Shown here one piece after another: positions 6,221-22,192 of a stretch of DNA of 24,000 nt. A model generated the notes under the pieces. The model made no database searches, was not told where the DNA came from, and was given only the letters and a program-made list of their open reading frames with translations. This stretch comes from Comamonadaceae bacterium. GTDB taxonomy: Bacteria > Pseudomonadota > Gammaproteobacteria > Burkholderiales > Burkholderiaceae_C. The position numbers were made by a program, and so were the translations under genes. Position 1 is the first letter of the stretch; each line of letters starts with the position of its first letter. The DNA lies in assembly GCA_027488115.1 (NCBI GenBank), contig JAIYCG010000006.1:41194-65193 (forward strand). Direction: 5' to 3'.

Positions 6221-6248
6221 GCGGGCAAGTATAAATGGGGGTCAAATA

Positions 6249-6393
6249 ATTGGGGTCAGATCAACATTAATTTTGTCAATCAGAGTGGCTAAAGGCAAAG
6301 GGGGGCTTCCTCATACTGGAGTACCAGAAATCGTTCAGCCCCCCTTTGCCTTTAGCCACTCTGATTAGAAATTAATGTTGATCTGACCCCAAT
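6249..6393. mobile_element. 145-bp hairpin MITE, copy A (TA-flanked, IS630/mariner-like signature, non-autonomous)
   Basis: The 24-nt terminal inverted repeats are ATTGGGGTCAGATCAACATTAATT and AATTAATGTTGATCTGACCCCAAT. TA flanks both ends (6247-48 and 6394-95). A perfect 29-bp inner stem surrounds a 31-nt apical segment. The copy is near-identical to 11019-11163. Confidence 0.85.
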
Positions 6394-6767
6394 TAATTTT
6401 CGGCAACAGAGCCAATCACTGCAGAGCCTTGAGGCAATCCATCTGGGCCTCTGAGTATGGCCAAGTGGCCTTTCAATTTAATGGACGTGCCAGACTTGTG
6501 CATAAAGGGCAAAACACCATCCTTGCTAATGGCAAATTCTTTGACAACTCCCAGCGACTTTGAAAAGCAGTTGCTATGGGCTTGTTGCATCTTCACGGGG
6601 ATGACCATGTTGGCATGTTGGCCCATTGCCTCACTGGCTTCAAAGCCCAAAGCCAATTCGGCGGCTTTGTTCCATAAAGTAATGATGCCGTCGGTGTTTA
6701 CGGCGATCACAATATAAGACATATTTTCAATCAAGGATTGACTGGTTTGAGCGGTGGAGATGGTCAT
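6393..6767 (-). CDS. Stand-alone PAS domain protein with no output domain
   Basis: 124 aa. IVIAVNTDGIITLWNKAAELALGFEASEAMGQHANMVIP is a typical PAS S-box core. The stop codon TAA is formed at the MITE junction. Confidence 0.75.
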   Translation of the reverse strand: MTISTAQTSQSLIENMSYIVIAVNTDGIITLWNKAAELALGFEASEAMGQHANMVIPVKMQQAHSNCFSKSLGVVKEFAISKDGVLPFMHKSGTSIKLKGHLAILRGPDGLPQGSAVIGSVAEN

Positions 6768-10980: not shown

Positions 10981-11018
10981 ATTTATTCCTTTGATTAGTG
11001 AACATTTGGTGGCAAATA

Positions 11019-11163
11019 ATTGGGGTCAGATCAACATTAATTTCCAATCAGAGTGGCTAAAGGCAAAGGGGGGCTTCCTCATACTGGAGTACCAGAAATC
11101 GTTCAGCCCCCCTTTGCCTTTAGCCACTCTGATTGACAAAATTAATGTTGATCTGACCCCAAT
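11019..11163. mobile_element. 145-bp hairpin MITE, copy B
   Basis: It has the same 24-nt TIRs, inner stem and apical segment as copy A. TA flanks sit at 11017-18 and 11164-65. The arms are in the opposite orientation to copy A. Confidence 0.85.
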
Positions 11164-11168
11164 TATTC

Positions 11169-14494: not shown

Positions 14495-14980
14495 TTACTG
14501 ATTTTGCGTCCTAAATTCCCAAGGCGGTATGGTATTTTTGTCTCTCCAGATGCCTATAACTTTTGAACGTGCCACAAGTTCAGCTTGGGCGTAGGTTTCT
14601 CGGTCTTCCTTGGGCTGTTCTGACTCATAGTGCTTGTAGTGCCATGCCATTCCCAGCTTGATTTGCTCCAGGCAAACGTCTGTGCCATTGAGCACCACTT
14701 TGCCAACGCTTCGGCCGTATTTGTCTTTTTTCTGAAACTCAACGATGACTTGTTTGCTCTGCACCAGTTGGCTTAAGGACTGTTTGGATCTTTGTCCAAA
14801 AGCCTGAGCCTTTTCAGGGGCGTCAATGCCTAGTAGGCGTATTTTGTGTTGGGTGTTGGTGGCGTCTAGAACTGTGATGGTGTCGCCGTCGGCGACGCCT
14901 ACCACTATGCCTTGAATTGTTCCAGCATACAGCTCGCAGCTGATGAAAAGCAGTGCTAAGAAACTATATTTTGAGAGCAA
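14495..14980 (-). CDS. Secreted thermonuclease (staphylococcal nuclease, SNase) family protein
   Basis: 161 aa. A hydrophobic N-terminus is followed by VADGDTITVLD...IRLLGIDAPE...FG...YGRSVG, the SNase OB-fold signature. The only available start is a TTG at 14980 with no clear SD. It overlaps the upstream gene end by 17 nt. Confidence 0.75.
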   Translation of the reverse strand: MLSKYSFLALLFISCELYAGTIQGIVVGVADGDTITVLDATNTQHKIRLLGIDAPEKAQAFGQRSKQSLSQLVQSKQVIVEFQKKDKYGRSVGKVVLNGTDVCLEQIKLGMAWHYKHYESEQPKEDRETYAQAELVARSKVIGIWRDKNTIPPWEFRTQNQ

Positions 14981-16964
14981 TGGTGTTACCGTCTGAGGTT
15001 GCTTGCATGACTGGGCCTGCCACTCTGCAGTCGCCTATTTTGTGTACCAAGATTCCTGCTGCTAAAAGCTTAGTTTCTAATTGACTGTTAGGCTGTCTTG
15101 GGCTCGACCAAGAAAAGAACACCGCATCCTCAATGAGGGATGGGCTACCACCAAAGACGCTGATGGAACCTATGCCAGCATCGTCACTGAAGGTGGGTGA
15201 AAACCACGGTTCACTCAAATACCTCACTTCGATGTTTTTCTCAAACAAGGTGCGCTGTATTTTCTGACGTGTGACCAATGGTGTTTCTTGAGCCACGCCA
15301 TCTCGGGGGGTGATCAAAAAAACTTTGCTGAATTTTTCTGCCAGTAAGAAAGCAGCTGCATAGGTGCCTTCGGTTTGGTCCATGTCAAAAAGTACAGCGC
15401 TTCCGGTCTGCATCGATTTGATGGCTTGAATGCTGATCAGCGAATGGCGGATGTCCGAGAACAAGCCTTCGCTCATGACTGTCTGAGGCAAACATCTAGG
15501 CACACTCATTTGCGCGCCCGTGGCCAAGATAATTTCATCAGGCTTGTGCGCAACAATCGACTCTAAAGTTGCCTCTGCGCCCAACTTAAACTGCACACCG
15601 GCTTGTTGGCAAGCATTGAATTGCCAATCGTAAATACTGCTAAGCGACTCGCTGTAGGGCAAACCCGCATGGCGTCTTGTGTTTCCACCTACTTCGTCAG
15701 ACTTGCCCATCACCACAACGCGATGCCCTCTGGAAGCTGCAATCCAAGCCGCTTCAAGTCCGGCGATGCCAGTGCCCACAATCACGATGGATTTATGCTT
15801 CAAGGCAACGGGTGGTTGCCATTCCAATTCATCGGGCTGCGCCACGCGCGGATTGTTGTCACAGGCAATTGGTTTTTGATGAACGATGGTGTTCCAGCAG
15901 TTGTTGGCCGCCACACAATAACGAATGTCGCGTGCTTTGCCACTGGCAGCTTTCATGGGCCATGCAGGATCTGTAATCAGCGCCCGCCCCAGTGCCACCA
16001 AATCGACCTGGCCACTGTTCACAAGTTGGTCAGCTTCAGAAGGATCCGTAATTCGTGCAACAGCCATCAGGGGCAGGTTGGGAACTGCAGCCCTGAGTCT
16101 TTCAAATATTGCCTTGTATGGAACTCTTGGATACTGATCATTGGGCATATGCGTTTCTAACGAAGGGCCATGCGATCCTTGGGTCGGGCACAAATAGTGA
16201 ATGTTGCCGACCTGCGCAAAGTGAGCCGCGATTCGACAAGATTCTTCAATGTCGATACCGCTTTTTACGCCATCGTTGCCAGGCAACTTCATGCCGATGA
16301 TGAACTGAGCGTTTGTGGCTGAGCGAATGGCATCCACCAACTCATCCAAGACACGAACTCGGTTGACCAGGTCGCCGCCATACAGGTCTTCTCTTAAGTT
16401 AGACCAAGGCGATAAAAATTGGTGCCATAAGTGGCCATGTCCGGCAGAAATTTCAATACCGCTGTAGCCGCATCTGAAAAGTCTGGCAGCAGCTTTTGCA
16501 AAAGATTCAATAACTTCTTCAATGCCAGAGGTGCTAAGTTCGCGTGGCATGGACCAACTTAAATCATCTGCCACGGGCGATGCACCAATGGCATCTGTTA
16601 GCCTGCCGCCCACGTGTCTGGCGCGGCCGGGGTCTTGAATTTGCGCAAGGATGCGGCAGTTGTGGACTTCAACGCTTTCAGCCAAGCGTGCCAAGCCAGA
16701 CAGCTCGCTGTCGTTCCAAGCACAAACGCGCGCAGAAGATTGATGTCGTGGCAAGGCACCTATGGGCTCAGTCACAACCATGGCCGCGCCACCCTTGGCG
16801 CGATTGGCATAGTAGTGAACCAGCTTGTCTGTGACGCGCCCTTTGTCGGCCAGCGCTGTCAAAATGGCAGCGTGCACAATTCGATTTTTCAGAGGCTTTC
16901 CAGCCAATTCAAAGCGATTGAATAAATCGGGGTAGGGTGAGGCGGTAGCCAAGACTTTGCGCAT
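14964..16964 (-). CDS. Two-domain NADH:flavin oxidoreductase (OYE-like TIM barrel plus FAD/NAD(P)-binding domain; 2,4-dienoyl-CoA reductase-like)
   Basis: 666 aa. The N-terminus FELAGKPLKNRIVHAAILT has the OYE pattern. The C-terminal half has the Rossmann motif IVIVGTGIAGLEAAWIAASRGHRVVVMGKSDEVGGN. Confidence 0.9.
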   Translation of the reverse strand: MRKVLATASPYPDLFNRFELAGKPLKNRIVHAAILTALADKGRVTDKLVHYYANRAKGGAAMVVTEPIGALPRHQSSARVCAWNDSELSGLARLAESVEVHNCRILAQIQDPGRARHVGGRLTDAIGASPVADDLSWSMPRELSTSGIEEVIESFAKAAARLFRCGYSGIEISAGHGHLWHQFLSPWSNLREDLYGGDLVNRVRVLDELVDAIRSATNAQFIIGMKLPGNDGVKSGIDIEESCRIAAHFAQVGNIHYLCPTQGSHGPSLETHMPNDQYPRVPYKAIFERLRAAVPNLPLMAVARITDPSEADQLVNSGQVDLVALGRALITDPAWPMKAASGKARDIRYCVAANNCWNTIVHQKPIACDNNPRVAQPDELEWQPPVALKHKSIVIVGTGIAGLEAAWIAASRGHRVVVMGKSDEVGGNTRRHAGLPYSESLSSIYDWQFNACQQAGVQFKLGAEATLESIVAHKPDEIILATGAQMSVPRCLPQTVMSEGLFSDIRHSLISIQAIKSMQTGSAVLFDMDQTEGTYAAAFLLAEKFSKVFLITPRDGVAQETPLVTRQKIQRTLFEKNIEVRYLSEPWFSPTFSDDAGIGSISVFGGSPSLIEDAVFFSWSSPRQPNSQLETKLLAAGILVHKIGDCRVAGPVMQATSDGNTIALKI

Positions 16965-17073
16965 AAGCTCAGTAGGTTAGCTCAAATGAAGATCGCATTC
17001 GCATAATATAAGGCTACTAGAAATCTAATGTGCAATGCTTGTACCAAATTCTGACTGATTGAGGACCTATTCA

Positions 17074-17865
17074 ATGTCGCTTGAATATTCGCCGAAGGGG
17101 CTGGTGGGTTTGTTGACCCCGCAAGCCAACACCACGGTAGAGGCGGAGTTTCAATTGTTATTGCCAGCGGGCATGGGCTTGGTCAATGGACGCTTGGTCA
17201 GTCATCAGCCCGAACTTGAAGACCGTCTGAAAGAATATTTTGCGAATCTAGACACCCACATTGCCCAGTTTGGTGATGCGCCTCTGGGGGTTATTGGGCT
17301 TGCGGTGACGGGTGCCTCTTATTTCATGGGATTGGACAAAGAGGCTGCGTTGCTGCAGCACTTGTCTTCAAGTCTTGGGTTTCCAGTCATGTCTGCTGGT
17401 TGGGCAGTGCGCCAGACTTTGAAAATTTTGAACGCTAAGCGCATTGCATTGGTATCGCCTTATCCGCATTCTTTGCTTTTACACAGCAAGGCTTATTGGA
17501 CATCCGATGGTTTTGATGTTTTGGAAGTGGCGCAAGTTGTGCAGCCAACAGCGGGTTCAAGCACGCATGTGTCTGGTCATCCCGTTTATTCGCTGGGCTC
17601 AGAGGATGTCATTCAATCTCTGCAGAAATTGAGTGCCACAGAAGCCGATGTTGTAGTGTTGCTGGGCACGGGTTTACCTACTTTGCGTTGCTTGTTGGCA
17701 GCGCCTCAAATACTTCGCAAGCCCGTTATTTCATGCAACTTGGCGCTTGCTTGGTGTTGCGCCAATGCTGTCCATCCTATGCCAGACGCTCAGCATTCAT
17801 TGCTCAGTTGGCTTGAAGGTATGTCATGGAAACAGCGCTATTTAGAGCGCTGTTCTGCAACTTAA
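17074..17865 (+). CDS. Asp/Glu/hydantoin racemase-superfamily protein (maleate isomerase / arylmalonate decarboxylase-like)
   Basis: The start is trimmed to the ATG at 17074, with GAGGA 8 nt upstream. GLLTPQANTTVEAEF and RIALVSPYP match the maleate-isomerase-like fold as I recall it. The catalytic Cys positions appear substituted (see findings). Confidence 0.7.
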   Translation: MSLEYSPKGLVGLLTPQANTTVEAEFQLLLPAGMGLVNGRLVSHQPELEDRLKEYFANLDTHIAQFGDAPLGVIGLAVTGASYFMGLDKEAALLQHLSSSLGFPVMSAGWAVRQTLKILNAKRIALVSPYPHSLLLHSKAYWTSDGFDVLEVAQVVQPTAGSSTHVSGHPVYSLGSEDVIQSLQKLSATEADVVVLLGTGLPTLRCLLAAPQILRKPVISCNLALAWCCANAVHPMPDAQHSLLSWLEGMSWKQRYLERCSAT

Positions 17866-17880
17866 GACAAGTCTCAAAGA

Positions 17881-18834
17881 TCAGTCTGCTTTAATTTTGG
17901 CGGTACTGATCACTTGCGCCCATTTCTTACGCTCACCCGCCAAGTAGTTTTTGAAGTCTTCCTTAGAACCGCCAACGGGCTCAACCCCAATGGTGGTCAT
18001 GCGTTCTTTGGTTTCAGGCGCATTCAAGGCTGCAGCAAAAGCAGCATGCAGTTTGTTCACCACTGCGGCAGGTGTACCTGCTGGCAGGAGTGCACCGTAC
18101 CATCCATTGCCATCCACATCTTGAATGCCAAATTCGCCAAGGCTTGGAATTTCTGGTGCCAACGAAGAACGCTTGGGAGACAAAACGGCAATAGGCTTGA
18201 GTTTGCCAGATCGAATCAATTCGTTTAAGCCGCCTAGGCCGTCAACGCCCAGTGGCACATGGCCTCCCAACAGATCTGCTTTTAAGGGGCCAGAGCCTTT
18301 GTAGGGAATGTGCGGCACATTGATGTTGGTGCGCTGAGCCAACAATTCCATGGCCAAGTGAGAGTTGGAGCCTGTACCCGCAGAACCAAATGACAAAGCG
18401 CCTGGGGCTGATTTAGCGCGGGCAATCATCTGCTCAAGCGTGGAGAAGGGCGTACCCGGTGCTGCGACCAAATAATTGCCGTAGCGCACCAAATGAATAA
18501 GCGGAATGAAATCCTCGAAGCGCCATCCCAGCTTGTCAAACAGAGCTTCACTGGTGGTGAAATTGGGCGCAGTGACCAAGATGGTGTAGCCGTCGGCGGG
18601 TGCTTTGGCGACAAATTCGGTGCCGATGTTGGCCGACGCGCCGGCTTTGTTTTCAACAATCACTTGCTGTCCAAATGCATTGGAGATGTGAGCCGCCATC
18701 AGCCGCGCCACAGTGTCTGTGCCGCCACCAGGGCTGTATGGCACAACAATTCGAATGGGTTTGATGGGAAAGTCCTGAGCCTGAGCACTGAGGCCTAAGA
18801 ACACTGACACAAGCAGGGTAAAAATAATCTTCAT
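17881..18834 (-). CDS. Bug/TctC-family periplasmic substrate-binding protein
   Basis: 317 aa with a signal peptide, followed by FPIKPIRIVVPYSPGGGTDTVARLMA. Confidence 0.9.
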   Translation of the reverse strand: MKIIFTLLVSVFLGLSAQAQDFPIKPIRIVVPYSPGGGTDTVARLMAAHISNAFGQQVIVENKAGASANIGTEFVAKAPADGYTILVTAPNFTTSEALFDKLGWRFEDFIPLIHLVRYGNYLVAAPGTPFSTLEQMIARAKSAPGALSFGSAGTGSNSHLAMELLAQRTNINVPHIPYKGSGPLKADLLGGHVPLGVDGLGGLNELIRSGKLKPIAVLSPKRSSLAPEIPSLGEFGIQDVDGNGWYGALLPAGTPAAVVNKLHAAFAAALNAPETKERMTTIGVEPVGGSKEDFKNYLAGERKKWAQVISTAKIKAD

Positions 18835-18927
18835 GTTGCTACTTCCGAAGTAATGCTGTCGAAAAATTCCATGATAGCCAAAAAGAACTTGTTGAGAATT
18901 AGGGTTTCAGTTGGGACATTTACATTA

Positions 18928-19320
18928 ATTGGGGTCAGATCACAATTGTTTTGGCAGCTTGGCAGCCAATTTGACCGGCATATTGAGTTCAATGCCCAGT
19001 GCATGGGCGAGTGCGTTAGCGCCGCTGACAACGCCGTTTTCATAGCCATCCTCGGCATCGCCAATTTTGGCTGACATGTGTGAGTAGCAAGCGCAAGGTA
19101 TGGTCTGAGCCTGCAACATTTTCAAAGCGACTTTGCCTGCGTCGTCCTTACCGCCACCTGCATCGTTAAAGAAAACGCAACTTGGTTTTTGGCTGAGCGC
19201 GATGACAAATTCAGCAGCAGATCGACCGCCATGTGAGCCCGATACGACGACGGCATTGGCCTGTGCATCGCTGATGTGTGCGATCGAGTCTAGTAAAAAC
19301 AATTGTGATATGACCCCAAT
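18928..19320. mobile_element. 393-bp TA-flanked, inverted-repeat-bounded cassette (mobile-insertion-cassette-like), a variant of the MITE family
   Basis: 25-nt inverted repeats ATTGGGGTCAGATCACAATTGTTTT (18928-18952) and its complement (19296-19320) differ at 1 position. TA flanks sit at 18926-27 and 19321-22. The outer 15 nt are identical to the 145-bp MITE termini. The interior is occupied by one ORF. Confidence 0.6.
18940..19302 (-). CDS. Hypothetical 120-aa protein encoded inside the inverted-repeat cassette
   Basis: The ORF has host-like codon usage and a non-repetitive, globular-looking sequence (VVVSGSHGGRSAAEF...FFNDAGGGKDDAGK...IGDAEDGYENGVVSGAN). The only start is a TTG inside the right repeat, and the TGA stop lies inside the left repeat. 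I could not assign a family. Confidence 0.6.
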   Translation of the reverse strand: MFLLDSIAHISDAQANAVVVSGSHGGRSAAEFVIALSQKPSCVFFNDAGGGKDDAGKVALKMLQAQTIPCACYSHMSAKIGDAEDGYENGVVSGANALAHALGIELNMPVKLAAKLPKQL

Positions 19321-19357
19321 TAAATCTACACTTATGCATCAAATACGGAGCGCTGAA

Positions 19358-20161
19358 ATGACCCCTGAGACATTGCTGCATCACCTTGATCACGGCACGC
19401 TTTGGCCGGCAGCTGAGCTCGCAAGTATGCCTGAAGAAGTTGCGAGTGCCTACCAAACAGCCCTGAAAGTTCGAACACTGAGACAGGCAAGAGGCGAAGT
19501 ACCCAAGGGCTTCAAGATTGGTTTTACCAATCGCAGCATTTGGGAGCGCTATCAAGTTTTCGAGCCCATTTGGGGAACGGTATGGAACACGACGCTTAGT
19601 TTTGCCAACGAAGCAAGTGAATGTCATGTCGATATCTCTAATGTGTGCCAACCTCGGTTGGAGCCTGAATTGGTTTTTGGCATGCGTTGTACGCCGCCTG
19701 CCAACTTAACGCTACAAAGCCTGTATGAGTCTATTGATTGGATGGCCAGTGGATTTGAGGTGGTTCAGTCGCATGCAGACAACTGGAAATTCAAAGTGGC
19801 CGATACAGTGACTGACAGTGGCTTGCACGCCAAATTGGTGGTGGGTCAGCAAGTGAAGTTGTCGGACGTTGCCCAAAATGGCAATGAATTGCATACTTTG
19901 TTGTCGGGTATGTCCCTCGAACTTTTGCAAGCAGGTAAAAGTATAGAGAAGGGCGCTGCATCCAATGTTCTAGACAGCCCGCTAATGGCTTTGCATCACT
20001 TTTTGACAGCCCTCAGAAACTGCCCTGGTGCCCCCGATGTTCAAGCCGGCGATGTCATCACCACAGGCACTTGGACTGACGCGTGGCCCTTGGTAAAAGG
20101 CCAGCATTGGGAAAGCCGTTACGACCTACCCCTAACCGGACTCAAGCTGCAAGTCATTTAA
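19358..20161 (+). CDS. 2-keto-4-pentenoate hydratase-like protein (MhpD/HpcG-type, fumarylacetoacetate hydrolase superfamily)
   Basis: The start is trimmed to the ATG at 19358, with GGAG 7 nt upstream. The track start at 19133 is antisense to the 120-aa ORF. Supporting motifs are VRTLRQARGEVPKGFKIGFTN and GDVITTGTWT. The TAA stop is formed at the solo-TIR junction. Confidence 0.8.
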   Translation: MTPETLLHHLDHGTLWPAAELASMPEEVASAYQTALKVRTLRQARGEVPKGFKIGFTNRSIWERYQVFEPIWGTVWNTTLSFANEASECHVDISNVCQPRLEPELVFGMRCTPPANLTLQSLYESIDWMASGFEVVQSHADNWKFKVADTVTDSGLHAKLVVGQQVKLSDVAQNGNELHTLLSGMSLELLQAGKSIEKGAASNVLDSPLMALHHFLTALRNCPGAPDVQAGDVITTGTWTDAWPLVKGQHWESRYDLPLTGLKLQVI

Positions 20162-20184
20162 TTGGGGTCAGATCAACATTAATT
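20161..20184 (+). repeat. Solo MITE terminus (left-type TIR) preceded by TA
   Basis: ATTGGGGTCAGATCAACATTAATT is identical to the TIR of copies A and B, and TA lies at 20159-60. It fills exactly the gap between the convergent hydratase and hicB genes: the hydratase stop overlaps its first base and the hicB stop overlaps its last. Confidence 0.8.
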
Positions 20185-20579
20185 TACTCAACAGTTAAAG
20201 CCAGATGCGCAATGAGACCAGACCTGGTTTCGCCATATTTTTTGGCTTTTGAATCCAAGCGCGCCAATACCCTTTTGGGCAGGGTAATGTTAACTCGCTC
20301 TACTTCGTCAGACATCAATGCCGGATCGACCTCGACCATTGCCCAGATCCAGCCTTTGAACTCTTTGTGCTTTTGCAGGTGAGAAATAGGGCTTGGTTTG
20401 GGGATAACTTGATCCATGTCCAAAGCGGTTTCAATCCACAACTCGATGGCCTCTTTGGTGTTTTCGATGGCTTCGTCAATGCCTTGATCTGAAGCGGAAA
20501 AGCAACCAGGCAGGTCAGGCACGACAACGCCCCAAGTTTGAGTTGCGGTTGCAGGCTCTATGGCAATTGGGAATTTCAT
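20184..20579 (-). CDS. hicB: HicB antitoxin (HicB N-terminal fold plus C-terminal ribbon-helix-helix)
   Basis: 131 aa. MKFPIAIEPATATQTWGVVVPDLPGCFSASDQGIDEAIENTKEAIELW is a canonical HicB N-domain. The C-terminal VNITLPKRVLARLDSKAKKYGETRSGLIAHLAL is RHH/CopG-like. It lies 3 nt downstream of hicA. Confidence 0.9.
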   Translation of the reverse strand: MKFPIAIEPATATQTWGVVVPDLPGCFSASDQGIDEAIENTKEAIELWIETALDMDQVIPKPSPISHLQKHKEFKGWIWAMVEVDPALMSDEVERVNITLPKRVLARLDSKAKKYGETRSGLIAHLALTVE

Positions 20580-20582
20580 AAT

Positions 20583-20771
20583 TTACTGATCCTTTAATCC
20601 AGACTGCTTTAGCAGTTTAGCCAGCAATCCGGTACCTAAATCTTTGCTGCTAAGAGGAACACTGATGTGACCTGCGCGAAGCGGATGTACATAAACATGG
20701 TGTGATCCTTTGATGCCGCGCAGTTGCCAGCCATTGCGCAATAACAGTGCGATGAACTCTTTGCTTTTCAT
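20583..20771 (-). CDS. hicA: HicA mRNA-interferase toxin
   Basis: 62 aa. MKSKEFIALLLRNGWQLRGIKGSHHVYVHP...ISVPLSSKDLGTGLLAKLLKQSGL matches the HicA/YcfA pattern, including the catalytic GSHH. Confidence 0.9.
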   Translation of the reverse strand: MKSKEFIALLLRNGWQLRGIKGSHHVYVHPLRAGHISVPLSSKDLGTGLLAKLLKQSGLKDQ

Positions 20772-20797: not shown

Positions 20798-20827
20798 AAA
20801 CGACAATGTACAAGTGCTTGCAGAATA

Positions 20828-20972
20828 ATTGAGGTCAGATCAACATTAATTTCCAATCAAAGGGGAGAAAGCCTAAGGGGGGCTTCCTCATACTGGCGTA
20901 CCAGAAATCGTTCAGCCCCCCTTAGGCTTTCTCCCCTTTGATTGACCAAATTAATGTTGATCTGACCCCAAT
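20828..20972. mobile_element. 145-bp hairpin MITE, copy C (divergent inner stem)
   Basis: It has the same architecture and TA flanks (20826-27 and 20973-74). The left TIR has one G>A change (20832). The apical segment has one A>C change (20897). The inner 29-bp stem differs from A and B at six positions per arm, all compensated. Confidence 0.85.
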
Positions 20973-22192
20973 TATTTAGGTCTGTCCTTCTCGGGATATT
21001 GGTCAAAAACTGCACCCTGTTCAAACAGTGCTTGAATTTCTTCGGTTGAATAACCCAACTCAACAAGTACCTGCTTGGAGTGCTGACCAAGCCAAGGCGC
21101 GGGCATTCGAATGGTACTCAGTGCACCGCTAGATTTAATGGGCAAGCCTATGGTTTTCATGGGGCCAATGATGGGGTGGTCTATGTCGTGAACCATTTTT
21201 CGCGCATGAATGTGCGGGTCGTTCATGATTTGCTCATAGCCAAAAACAGGGCCACCTGGAATGCCTGCCGCATCCATTTTGCCAACCCAATGTGCAGTTG
21301 ACTCTTGCATCAAAATGGCCTCAATGTCTCGTTCTAATGCATCCGCATTTTTAACGCGCAAAGCTTGCGTGATGTAGAGAGGATTAGACGGCCAATCGGG
21401 CTTCTCAACCACTTTTTCGCAAAACACCAGCCATAGTTTTTGAGACCCTGCGCCCACAGTGACATAACCATCTGCACTTCGATAAGCCTGGTAGGGCGCC
21501 GCGCGGCGGTGCCTTGTGCCCGTAGACGTGGGTATTTCACCCGATCCAAAAAACGCGCCAAACTCCCAAGCTGTCCAGGCAAGGCCGGCTTCTAACAAAG
21601 AGGTTTCAAGGTACTGACCTGTGCCAAAACGTAATTTACCAATCAAGGCCCCCAAAATACCAGAAAGTGCCGTCACGCCACTTGCAATGTCGTTCATGGC
21701 AATGCCCACTTTGACAGGGCGTCCACCGGGTTCACCAGTCATCAGCATGATGCCCGACATGCCTTGCGCAATGATGTCAAAGCCGCCCTTTTTGCCATAA
21801 GGCCCCGTCTGACCAAAGCCAGACAAAGAAGCATAAATGACGCTTGGGTTGACAGCCTTAACTGTCTCGTATCCCAAGCCCATGCGCTTCACAACGCCCG
21901 GCCGAAAGTTCTCCAAGATAATGTCTGCTTTAGAAGCCAAGTCCAAGGCGATCTTCAAACCTCCAGGGTCTTTTAAATTGAGCGCAACACTTTGTTTGTT
22001 CCGGTTCAGCACCGCAAAGCAATAAGACTCGCCATTCACCTGAGGCTCAAAACTTCTAGAAGAATCGCCCTTGTTGGCGTTTTCAATTTTGATCACCTCT
22101 GCACCCATGTCACCCAAGACCATGCTGCAGTAAGGCCCCGCCAGCACGTTGGTTAAATCAAGAACACGAATGCCAGACAAGGGGAGGGTCAT
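20972..22192 (-). CDS. Family III CoA-transferase (CaiB/BaiF/formyl-CoA transferase-like)
   Basis: 406 aa. LSGIRVLDLTNVLAGPYCSMVLGDMGAEVIKIE is the canonical family III N-terminus. The TAA stop is formed at the MITE C junction. Confidence 0.9.
   Translation of the reverse strand: MTLPLSGIRVLDLTNVLAGPYCSMVLGDMGAEVIKIENANKGDSSRSFEPQVNGESYCFAVLNRNKQSVALNLKDPGGLKIALDLASKADIILENFRPGVVKRMGLGYETVKAVNPSVIYASLSGFGQTGPYGKKGGFDIIAQGMSGIMLMTGEPGGRPVKVGIAMNDIASGVTALSGILGALIGKLRFGTGQYLETSLLEAGLAWTAWEFGAFFGSGEIPTSTGTRHRRAAPYQAYRSADGYVTVGAGSQKLWLVFCEKVVEKPDWPSNPLYITQALRVKNADALERDIEAILMQESTAHWVGKMDAAGIPGGPVFGYEQIMNDPHIHARKMVHDIDHPIIGPMKTIGLPIKSSGALSTIRMPAPWLGQHSKQVLVELGYSTEEIQALFEQGAVFDQYPEKDRPK

Follow-up and report, generated by a model that had tools for sequence, protein, structure and literature searches.

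A small gene enclosed by inverted MITE termini in a Comamonadaceae genome: a probable fossil cassette of the Limnohabitans clade

Mobile insertion cassettes (MICs) include MIC231 of Bacillus cereus, the qnrD/qnrS2 mic elements and the Tn3-type MICs of Xanthomonas. A MIC consists of terminal inverted repeats of insertion sequence (IS) type or of miniature inverted-repeat transposable element (MITE) type around one or a few passenger genes, with no transposase (PMC3913671, PMC5444012, PMC4337579). Palindromic miniature elements can also join host coding sequences and are then inherited with the gene, as in the Rickettsia palindromic elements (RPEs) and in intragenic ERIC/BOX elements (PMC10969869). 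The Correia elements of Neisseria have ends from which promoters can arise, and their hairpins, once transcribed, serve as substrates of RNase III (PMC2649163). In REPIN-RAYT systems, a short, single-copy and vertically inherited gene is flanked by inverted copies of the most abundant palindromic repeat of its genome (PMC3337134, PMC3116915). Here we compare with these systems a gene for a 120-aa protein that lies between two inverted MITE-like termini in a 24,000-nucleotide stretch (the window) of a Comamonadaceae bacterium (GCA_027488115.1, contig JAIYCG010000006.1, positions 41,194 to 65,193).

The small gene is probably a chromosomal, vertically inherited gene, both ends of which have been fused to inward-facing termini of a TA-flanked, palindromic MITE family with which the intergenic DNA of Limnohabitans is saturated. 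Our verdict on the whole unit is that it is a fossil, exapted MIC-like cassette, an old inherited arrangement that is neither a fresh insertion nor a new kind of transposase.

The focal unit and the history of its two termini

A repeat search of the window placed the inverted-repeat arms at 18925-18952 and 19296-19323 (TTAATTGGGGTCAGATCACAATTGTTTT and AAAACAATTGTGATATGACCCCAATTAA); they are 28 nt long with one mismatch (96% complementary) and have 343 nt between them. A preliminary description of this DNA had recognized the repeats and their single mismatch but gave them 25 nt; the arms are longer because their TA flanks sit within palindromic TTAA. As that description had read it, the interior is wholly coding: a single minus-strand open reading frame (ORF; 18940-19302, 120 aa) with the motifs GSHGG, FFNDAGGGKD and CxCYSH occupies it; the right arm holds its TTG start, the left arm its TGA stop. 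The right arm (19296-19323, minus strand) is the gene-proximal 5′ terminus and contains the start codon at 19302-19300 in the context CAA-TTG, with a GGGG run 11 nt upstream as a possible ribosome-binding site. The left arm (18925-18952, minus strand) is the gene-distal 3′ terminus and supplies the last codons K-Q-L and the TGA at 18942-18940, so that the stop context in the window lineage, CAA-TTG-TGA, comes from the terminus. The arms differ by a T at 19310 in the 5′ terminus, where the canonical terminus has G. Among contigs 99% identical to the window, three alleles (the canonical G, T and A) were seen at this G of GATC (window 19310; L004 3991; L005, L006; L numbers denote the related loci compared, and WIN the window locus), making it an unusually variable position in an otherwise conserved repeat.

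The antiquity of the arrangement is clearest at the 5′ end. 80 genome loci and several protein-anchored contigs, together with a scan of metagenome DNA, supplied about 40 loci of the Limnohabitans clade for comparison. With few exceptions, the 5′ terminus stood at an identical offset in these loci, with its end 3 nt ahead of the first codon, even where protein identity was as low as 66%, and the flanking DNA turned unrelated exactly at TTAATTGGGG. In the main subclade the first codon was TTG; the L014-L020 clade had ATG and L021 had GTG. Such an interchange at one codon is the hallmark of a genuine start codon. Homologues at ≤67% identity were without the terminus and began about seven codons earlier (M-S-S-Q-P-P-S-I-T-L-L-D-S), indicating that the terminus replaced an ancestral N-terminus of that length. 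Across the main subclade the 28-nt 5′ terminus was 25-28/28 identical with synonymous sites near saturation, and its non-coding 20 nt were 95% identical as against 81% in the adjacent spacer and a pS (synonymous difference) of 0.5-0.7. Orthologous free MITE termini, unlike the 5′ terminus, had decayed (L007 and L009 at the site beside the c4 gene, an upstream neighbour described below). The 5′ fusion is common to the whole Limnohabitans clade and ancient, with synonymous divergence (dS) saturated. In strain 103DPR2, the outer 12 nt of the 5′ terminus have been secondarily lost and an ATG gained. This strain had raised the idea that the inner repeat is native coding sequence, which was ruled out because distant homologues have a longer and different N-terminus and the same inner sequence occurs in free MITEs.

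The 3′ terminus has a less constant history and was found in four states. The window type, CACAATTGTTTTG, in which the ORF ends in K-Q-L-TGA, occurred only with a block of genes headed by a Bug-family gene downstream (WIN, L004-6, L087-90), and the identical 27 nt were present in all Bug-linked relatives. The second state was CACAATTAATT (L010, L117, L184, L194, L021, L181) and the third the dominant free-MITE type AACATTAATTT (L011, L191, L122, L132); in the fourth, there was no terminus or remnants only. These states match different subfamilies of free MITEs. In L007, a full-length 80-bp MITE has inserted at the TA that borders the outer side of an old, decayed 3′ terminus, and L011 corresponds to L007 with a deletion between two AAATT repeats that fuses the ORF to the distal terminus of the MITE (tail K-L-M-L-I-stop). 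The 3′ end of L009 is the window-type terminus minus 12 nt, and that of L013 is the L010 end minus its outer 20 nt. The 3′ terminus has thus been lost, eroded or replaced by other MITE-subfamily termini in different lineages. The L014-L019 clade has a decayed AAT CAA TTA TGA ACTTACC... at the window-type 3′ junction, a resemblance suggesting that a two-armed CACAATTG-type cassette is ancestral. Within the Bug-linked lineage, the non-coding part of the 3′ arm was 13-14/14 identical, at a dS of 0.4-1.1 for the Bug gene; strong constraint on this arm was considered and dropped after comparison with the adjacent spacer.

These states point to a route by which the fusions may have arisen. A MITE would have inserted at TA or TAA beside the gene, and deletions would then have removed the near half of the MITE together with a few terminal codons, a step that can be traced from L007 to L011. 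Alternatively, the gene may have been captured once, inside a CACAATTG-type element, as the founding event. The 5′ terminus would now be kept as the translation-initiation region of the gene.

With the start and stop codons inside the arms, both arms would be transcribed in the window lineage. RNA fold prediction gave a closing stem of about 27 bp that encloses the whole ORF (z = -3.2 for the whole fold). In the predicted mRNA, this stem between the 5′ and 3′ arms would make the start codon inaccessible as soon as the 3′ arm has been transcribed. The stem is of sufficient length for an RNase III substrate, and by analogy with Correia elements it may limit translation or create an RNase III site. 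A consensus scan found no outward promoter at the cassette ends. Six relatives (L089, L007, L087, L009, L008, L013) have a perfect TTGACA in a conserved block about 54-59 nt upstream of the small-gene start, within the spacer that separates c4 from the 5′ terminus; as a candidate -35 element, it would put the transcription start near the edge of the terminus. No equivalent of this block was seen in the hydratase context of the window.

The repeat family and the small protein

The 15-mer ATTGGGGTCAGATCA occurs nine times in the window at ≤2 mismatches, against 0.07 occurrences expected by chance. Six of the nine are the ends of three MITEs of about 145 bp, two belong to the focal arms and the last is a solo terminus at 20161. 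The earlier observation that the focal arms have their outer 15 nt in common with the 145-bp MITEs and differ from them in the inner part (CAATTGTTTT vs ACATTAATTT) is borne out. Each of the three MITEs measures 149 bp with its TA flanks: one at 6247-6395 (145-bp core 6249-6393) with the canonical AACATTAATTT inner terminus, one of the same family at 11017-11165 (core 11019-11163), and one at 20826-20974 (core 20828-20972) upstream of hicA. The solo terminus (20159-20185, plus strand) bridges the convergent stop codons of the hydratase gene and hicB. The free MITEs of the window continue into ...AACATTAATTT and the focal arms into ...CACAATTGTTTT, so that both arms carry the rarer inner sequence and not the dominant type of the genome. 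The metagenome scan also found this CACAATT inner type, and with it the very 27-nt terminus of the window cassette, in free MITEs and solo termini at a distance from the gene, which shows the arms to be genuine element ends and not gene-derived sequence.

Free members of the family range from 44 to 149 bp, in size classes of roughly 44-54, 72-81 and 145 bp, and the family is very abundant (10 termini in 6.4 kb in L171). At one orthologous site about 620-700 nt upstream of the small gene (L013, L008, L087, L007, L009), the MITE of the relatives is 81 or 44 bp long or is reduced to a 20-bp stub (TTAATTGGGGCCCCCAATTAA) or to a half remnant; the shared outer junction indicates that resident copies shrink by internal deletion, which gives the size classes. 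TA, within TAATT, was invariant at every copy of the family, and at two orthologous MITE positions there was no clean empty site, only remnants or unalignable flanks. Target duplication of TA by the family is plausible from the sequences, if unproven. The TA flank and the first A of the terminus form the TAA stop of three window genes, namely the hydratase gene (19358-20161, stop 20159-20161), a CoA-transferase gene (20972-22192, stop 20972-20974) and an ORF at 6393-6767 (stop 6393-6395). This fits insertion at TAA and explains why termini abut the ends of ORFs, and suggests that the family inserts at TAA stops and regenerates them. Neither an Rfam scan of the window nor the literature on Limnohabitans MITEs returned anything relevant: the former gave no family, and the latter yielded no pertinent report.

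Several further features of the family were observed. The hicA/hicB toxin-antitoxin pair (20184-20771, minus strand) is bracketed by the solo terminus at 20159-20185 and the MITE at 20826-20974, the outer end of which is inverted relative to the solo terminus, so that this pair, too, forms a gene-inside-termini unit, of 816 bp. A perfectly complementary inner stem of 30-31 nt is present in each 145-bp MITE (11045-11135, 20854-20944, 6278-6366); the stems differ between copies at about eight positions, all of them compensated, and the elements are near-perfect hairpins. Such compensation would indicate selection for the hairpin, or a copying mechanism that keeps it. A partial terminus of 12-14 nt (TAATTGGGGTCA plus 2 nt) stands directly before a complete one at several sites (window 6236-6250; L007 ~7813; L013 ~2527 and ~4939; and, in L015 and L017-L019, upstream of the gene), a pattern suggestive of repeated nesting or of aborted insertions, or else of a preference for targets inside the terminus. 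In about 1 Mb of related DNA, the only other cargo-bearing unit bounded by termini was found in L155 (649-1539): it is 885 bp long, has perfect inverted repeats of at least 31 nt with the core GGGGTCAGATCACAATT, and contains a 212-aa ORF without a family match. The same core was seen with different outer flanks in soil and other metagenome contigs (L109, L150, L096, L124), showing that the core motif is broader than the Limnohabitans MITE family.

The gene between the focal arms had 530 homologues at E ≤ 1e-3 in a 90%-clustered database. The best 120 of these 530 were 99-151 aa long, mostly 117-124 aa, and came from Limnohabitans and freshwater metagenomes. A fragment of a longer gene, for which the preliminary description had allowed, was thereby ruled out, since close homologues are not longer at both ends. 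Pairwise dN/dS (the ratio of nonsynonymous to synonymous divergence) was 0.06-0.17 at a dS of 0.9-2; the small gene is a real gene that encodes a conserved protein under purifying selection. An exhaustive HMMER search gave 813 representatives, most of about 275 aa and matching the query twice, and by these matches the 120-aa protein is the single-domain form of a domain usually found as a tandem pair. Some relatives of the domain are fused to CMD, methyltransferase or E1-dehydrogenase domains, and residues invariant in the family include GSHGG, FFNDAGGGK and C-x-C-Y-S-H. The tandem-pair relatives often adjoin TctC genes (P0121-P0270; L031, L035, L038, L041), and an occasional relative has a C-terminal region that is chorismate-mutase-like by eye alone.

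The preliminary description had seen no transposase in this protein and had proposed profile and structure-prediction searches to check it. The homologues proved numerous, but no named family or significant fold match emerged: Pfam, NCBIfam and PADLOC gave no family above threshold, and sequence and profile searches of the PDB gave no relative. The protein scored 14.1 bits against the Pfam family IMS, below the cutoff of 23.2, and the two-domain relatives matched DUF1805/IMS only locally, over 30-40 residues. AlphaFold2 predicted, with moderate confidence (pLDDT 71), a small beta-alpha-beta domain of Rossmann-like alpha/beta type. Foldseek searches of the PDB with this model gave no significant match (E ≥ 0.1), the best being a local, 60-residue likeness to the palm of Y-family polymerases at E ~0.1. 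The protein is slightly acidic (pI 6.0). The genes beside distant homologues are metabolic (SDR, Ldh_2-type dehydrogenase, family III CoA-transferase, TctC, thioesterase, TetR), and the wider family is widespread in bacteria and archaea without these repeats. A plasmid search gave no close match, only hypothetical proteins of about 40-44% identity on haloarchaeal and alphaproteobacterial plasmids. Nothing points to a nucleic-acid enzyme, the protein is not transposase-like, and its function is probably metabolic or ligand-binding. The metagenome-assembled genome SHXD01 (Limnohabitans Baikal-deep-G100) has two diverged copies of the small gene in different contexts (L009 and L019), 79% and 68% identical to that of the window and each with its own version of the 5′ terminus. 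As an uncharacterised and widespread domain, GSHGG / NDAGGGKD / CxCYSH may merit study of its own.

Genomic neighbourhood and the weighing of explanations

In the window, the small gene stands between a TctC/Bug-family gene and a divergent hydratase gene (19358-20161, plus strand) with a weak likeness to FAA_hydrolase. The Bug/TctC gene (17881-18834, minus strand) forms a block of about 3.9 kb (14964-18834) with an Amdase-like (arylmalonate-decarboxylase-like) gene (17059-17865, plus strand) and an FMN/FAD oxidoreductase of the old yellow enzyme (OYE) type (14964-16964, minus strand). Beyond it lies an SNase-family gene (14495-14980, minus strand), the orthologue (67-81% aa identity) of the SNase gene found immediately downstream of the small gene in most related genomes. 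The latter starts 25-222 nt from the end of the small-gene match in 16 clade loci, where the Bug block is absent, and in L010 and L011 the 3′ terminus runs directly up to its ATG. In the window, the Bug-Amdase-oxidoreductase block is interposed exactly at the outer edge of the 3′ terminus, which forms the junction with it, and the SNase gene is found 3.9 kb further on. There is a Bug-linked sublineage of the small gene; the block is conserved even in relatives with small-protein identity as low as 78%, and the 3′ end of the oxidoreductase gene overlaps an altered SNase start by 17 nt. The Bug gene was also considered as a conserved partner across the family and ruled out in this role, as the TctC beside the 103DPR2 homologue is a paralogue only ~30% identical.

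The upstream side varies likewise. The neighbour is the hydratase in WIN, L004, L012 (Limnohabitans sp. Rim11) and L204, the unannotated 170-aa gene c4 in 12 loci, and c9 (a LON-substrate-domain gene) or hicB in others; upstream and downstream neighbour types were found in all combinations, and hicAB lies near the small gene in many loci. Between L089 and L007, identity is 97-100% over the upstream flank and the greater part of the gene, and the two diverge in its last ~40 nt, a breakpoint inside the gene which indicates that recombination within the unit or at its edges reshuffles the neighbours. The breakpoints of neighbour swaps lie at terminus edges or in these last ~40 nt. The flanks on the two sides have been exchanged independently of each other, and the small gene is a stable member of one syntenic neighbourhood (hicAB ... 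small gene ... SNase) with variable inserts.

The preliminary description had found the unit consistent with an insertion into the Bug-hydratase spacer, since its removal with one TA leaves about 128 bp. The arithmetic is correct (523 nt minus 395), but the interpretation is not supported: the many flank combinations show that the repeat-gene unit predates its present neighbours, and the Bug-Amdase-OYE block is itself the interposed segment. The search for an empty site, made at two orthologous MITE positions, found none; at the hydratase-adjacent locus of Rim11, the gene is kept, the SNase gene directly follows and the 3′ repeat is missing. Synteny without the repeats, which that description would have held against an insertion, is seen in part: the hydratase adjoins the gene in a relative without the 3′ repeat, and 103DPR2 is without both outer termini. 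On the other condition that it had named as refuting, a repeat pair confined to this locus, the terminus itself is very common, although the gene-containing pair occurs once per locus. The search for further copies of the whole unit among the related loci found no near-identical ones at different sites. Of the three origins then offered, the resident gene flanked by two termini is supported; a novel element-encoded protein is not, and the MIC option stands for layout and fails on those signs of mobility that could be tested.

An active MIC, that is, a non-autonomous cassette with a passenger gene, mobilised in trans and inserted at TA between Bug and hydratase, would account for the intact 28-nt inverted repeats with TA on both sides, for termini common to an abundant MITE family that includes free copies with the same inner sequence, and for many flank combinations in which homology stops at the terminus edges; the perfect repeats of the L155 cargo unit and the two diverged copies in one genome (L009, L019) could be read in the same way. 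We nevertheless consider it quite unlikely. The gene occupies one syntenic region across lineages with saturated dS, and left and right flanks change independently with a breakpoint inside the gene, which fits recombination and not transposition. The unit is present once per locus without near-identical copies elsewhere, no transposase with these ends was found in the ~1 Mb of related DNA, and there are no close plasmid matches. The TA is invariant, so that a duplication is not demonstrable, and no empty site was found. In principle a transposase of the MITE family could still act on the cassette; nothing indicates that it moves. The layout also mirrors that of RAYT genes in being single copy, short and flanked by dispersed palindromic repeats (PMC3337134), and the protein could accordingly be a single-copy, vertically inherited factor acting in trans, a new kind of transposase or a terminus-binding protein with a non-HUH alpha/beta fold, that drives or polices the palindromic MITEs of Limnohabitans. 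Restriction of the terminus-flanked subfamily to the MITE-bearing lineage, the near-perfect hairpins with compensated arm differences in the 145-bp MITEs, and a protein without known function all lend themselves to this idea, which we regard as highly improbable. The protein is acidic, is predicted to adopt a small Rossmann-like fold and has no HUH/Y, DDE or other nuclease/recombinase signature; its family is widespread without the repeats, often two-domain or fused to metabolic domains and found in catabolic clusters; the 3′ repeat is dispensable; and in L014-L019, the flanking terminus has drifted (GGTCA, as in L015) whereas the only free MITE seen there keeps GATCA.

The gene might instead lie between two unrelated MITE remnants by neutral coincidence, the repeats having neither a role nor a reason for selective retention. 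A very high MITE density of roughly one terminus per kilobase (and the ten of L171), a 3′ terminus that is dispensable and independently replaced or lost, and the similar bracketing of hicAB would be expected on this account, and the 3′ arm does not significantly exceed the adjacent spacer (82-86% identical) in conservation, which also weighs against the reading that we favour. Coincidence is unlikely all the same: the 5′ terminus contains the start codon at an offset kept through saturating divergence while orthologous free termini decay, it is more conserved than its adjacent spacer, and both window arms share the rarer CACAATTGTTTT inner sequence. The reading of an old resident gene fused to MITE termini, which remains the probable one, has further points against it. 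In the 5′ arm, G has changed independently three times (to T, to A and, at another site, to A) with no compensation in the 3′ arm, which speaks against strong selection for pairing; together with the many lineages that have no 3′ arm, these changes make pairing of the arms at most a lineage-specific modifier. The consensus scan gave no promoter candidate for the small gene in the window context, only one for Bug. The ancestral window-type 3′ junction rests on a match of only ~52-65% to the decayed sequence of L014-L019, and the order of events is unproven between one ancestral cassette with later 3′ decay and repeated independent 3′ acquisitions. The contexts of the deeper clades L014-L019 are unrelated, and earlier transposition of the cassette, not rearrangement, could be the reason. 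Pairing of termini over the ~1 Mb, with complete genomes outside the scan, gave no unit with a transposase, and the one gene unit per locus was likewise counted in locus-sized samples and not in complete genomes.

Comparison with described systems

The window unit has exactly the layout of a MIC, with repeats of IS/MITE type and no transposase. MICs, however, are known by their mobility, through target duplications, occurrence at several sites and a cognate IS, whereas the window unit is single copy, syntenic and old: neither several copies or sites nor a cognate IS was found in the ~1 Mb of related DNA. It differs further in that its repeats overlap the start and stop codons and the passenger fills the element, and in that no cognate transposase was found. 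It is not a MITE either, since the 393-bp unit has inverted repeats but is wholly coding and single copy.

The free repeats resemble Correia elements (~100-155 bp, ~26-nt terminal inverted repeats, TA flanks, gene-adjacent) in being 44-149 bp long, TA-flanked and next to genes, with terminal inverted repeats of ~27 nt and size classes. Correia elements enclose no conserved protein gene, and the likeness described here is one of layout. With REPIN-RAYT systems, the unit has in common the flanking inverted, dispersed repeats, the single copy and vertical inheritance. The HUH and Y motifs are absent: the 120-aa sequence has no H-hydrophobic-H motif and no HUH/Y1 fold, and the wider protein family stands in metabolic contexts and occurs without repeats. 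Compared at the same loci, in locus-sized samples, the flanking repeat matches the repeat type of the genome in its outer 15 nt and differs from the dominant free type in its inner part, and in the one clade in which this could be checked, it seems not to track the repeat type of the genome.

The locus offers a clean, datable case in which MITE ends were absorbed as the start and stop signals of a host gene and kept through the diversification of a genus. An element-like layout of inverted repeats, TA flanks and an ORF-filled interior can thus be a fossil and not a mobile unit, and MITE ends mark points of gene exchange in streamlined freshwater genomes. By analogy, the closest counterparts of the unit are in-frame MITE-ORF fusions such as the RPEs. 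RPEs add an internal peptide to their host protein; here, two termini replace the extreme N- and C-terminal codons, so that the gene is topologically inside the element.

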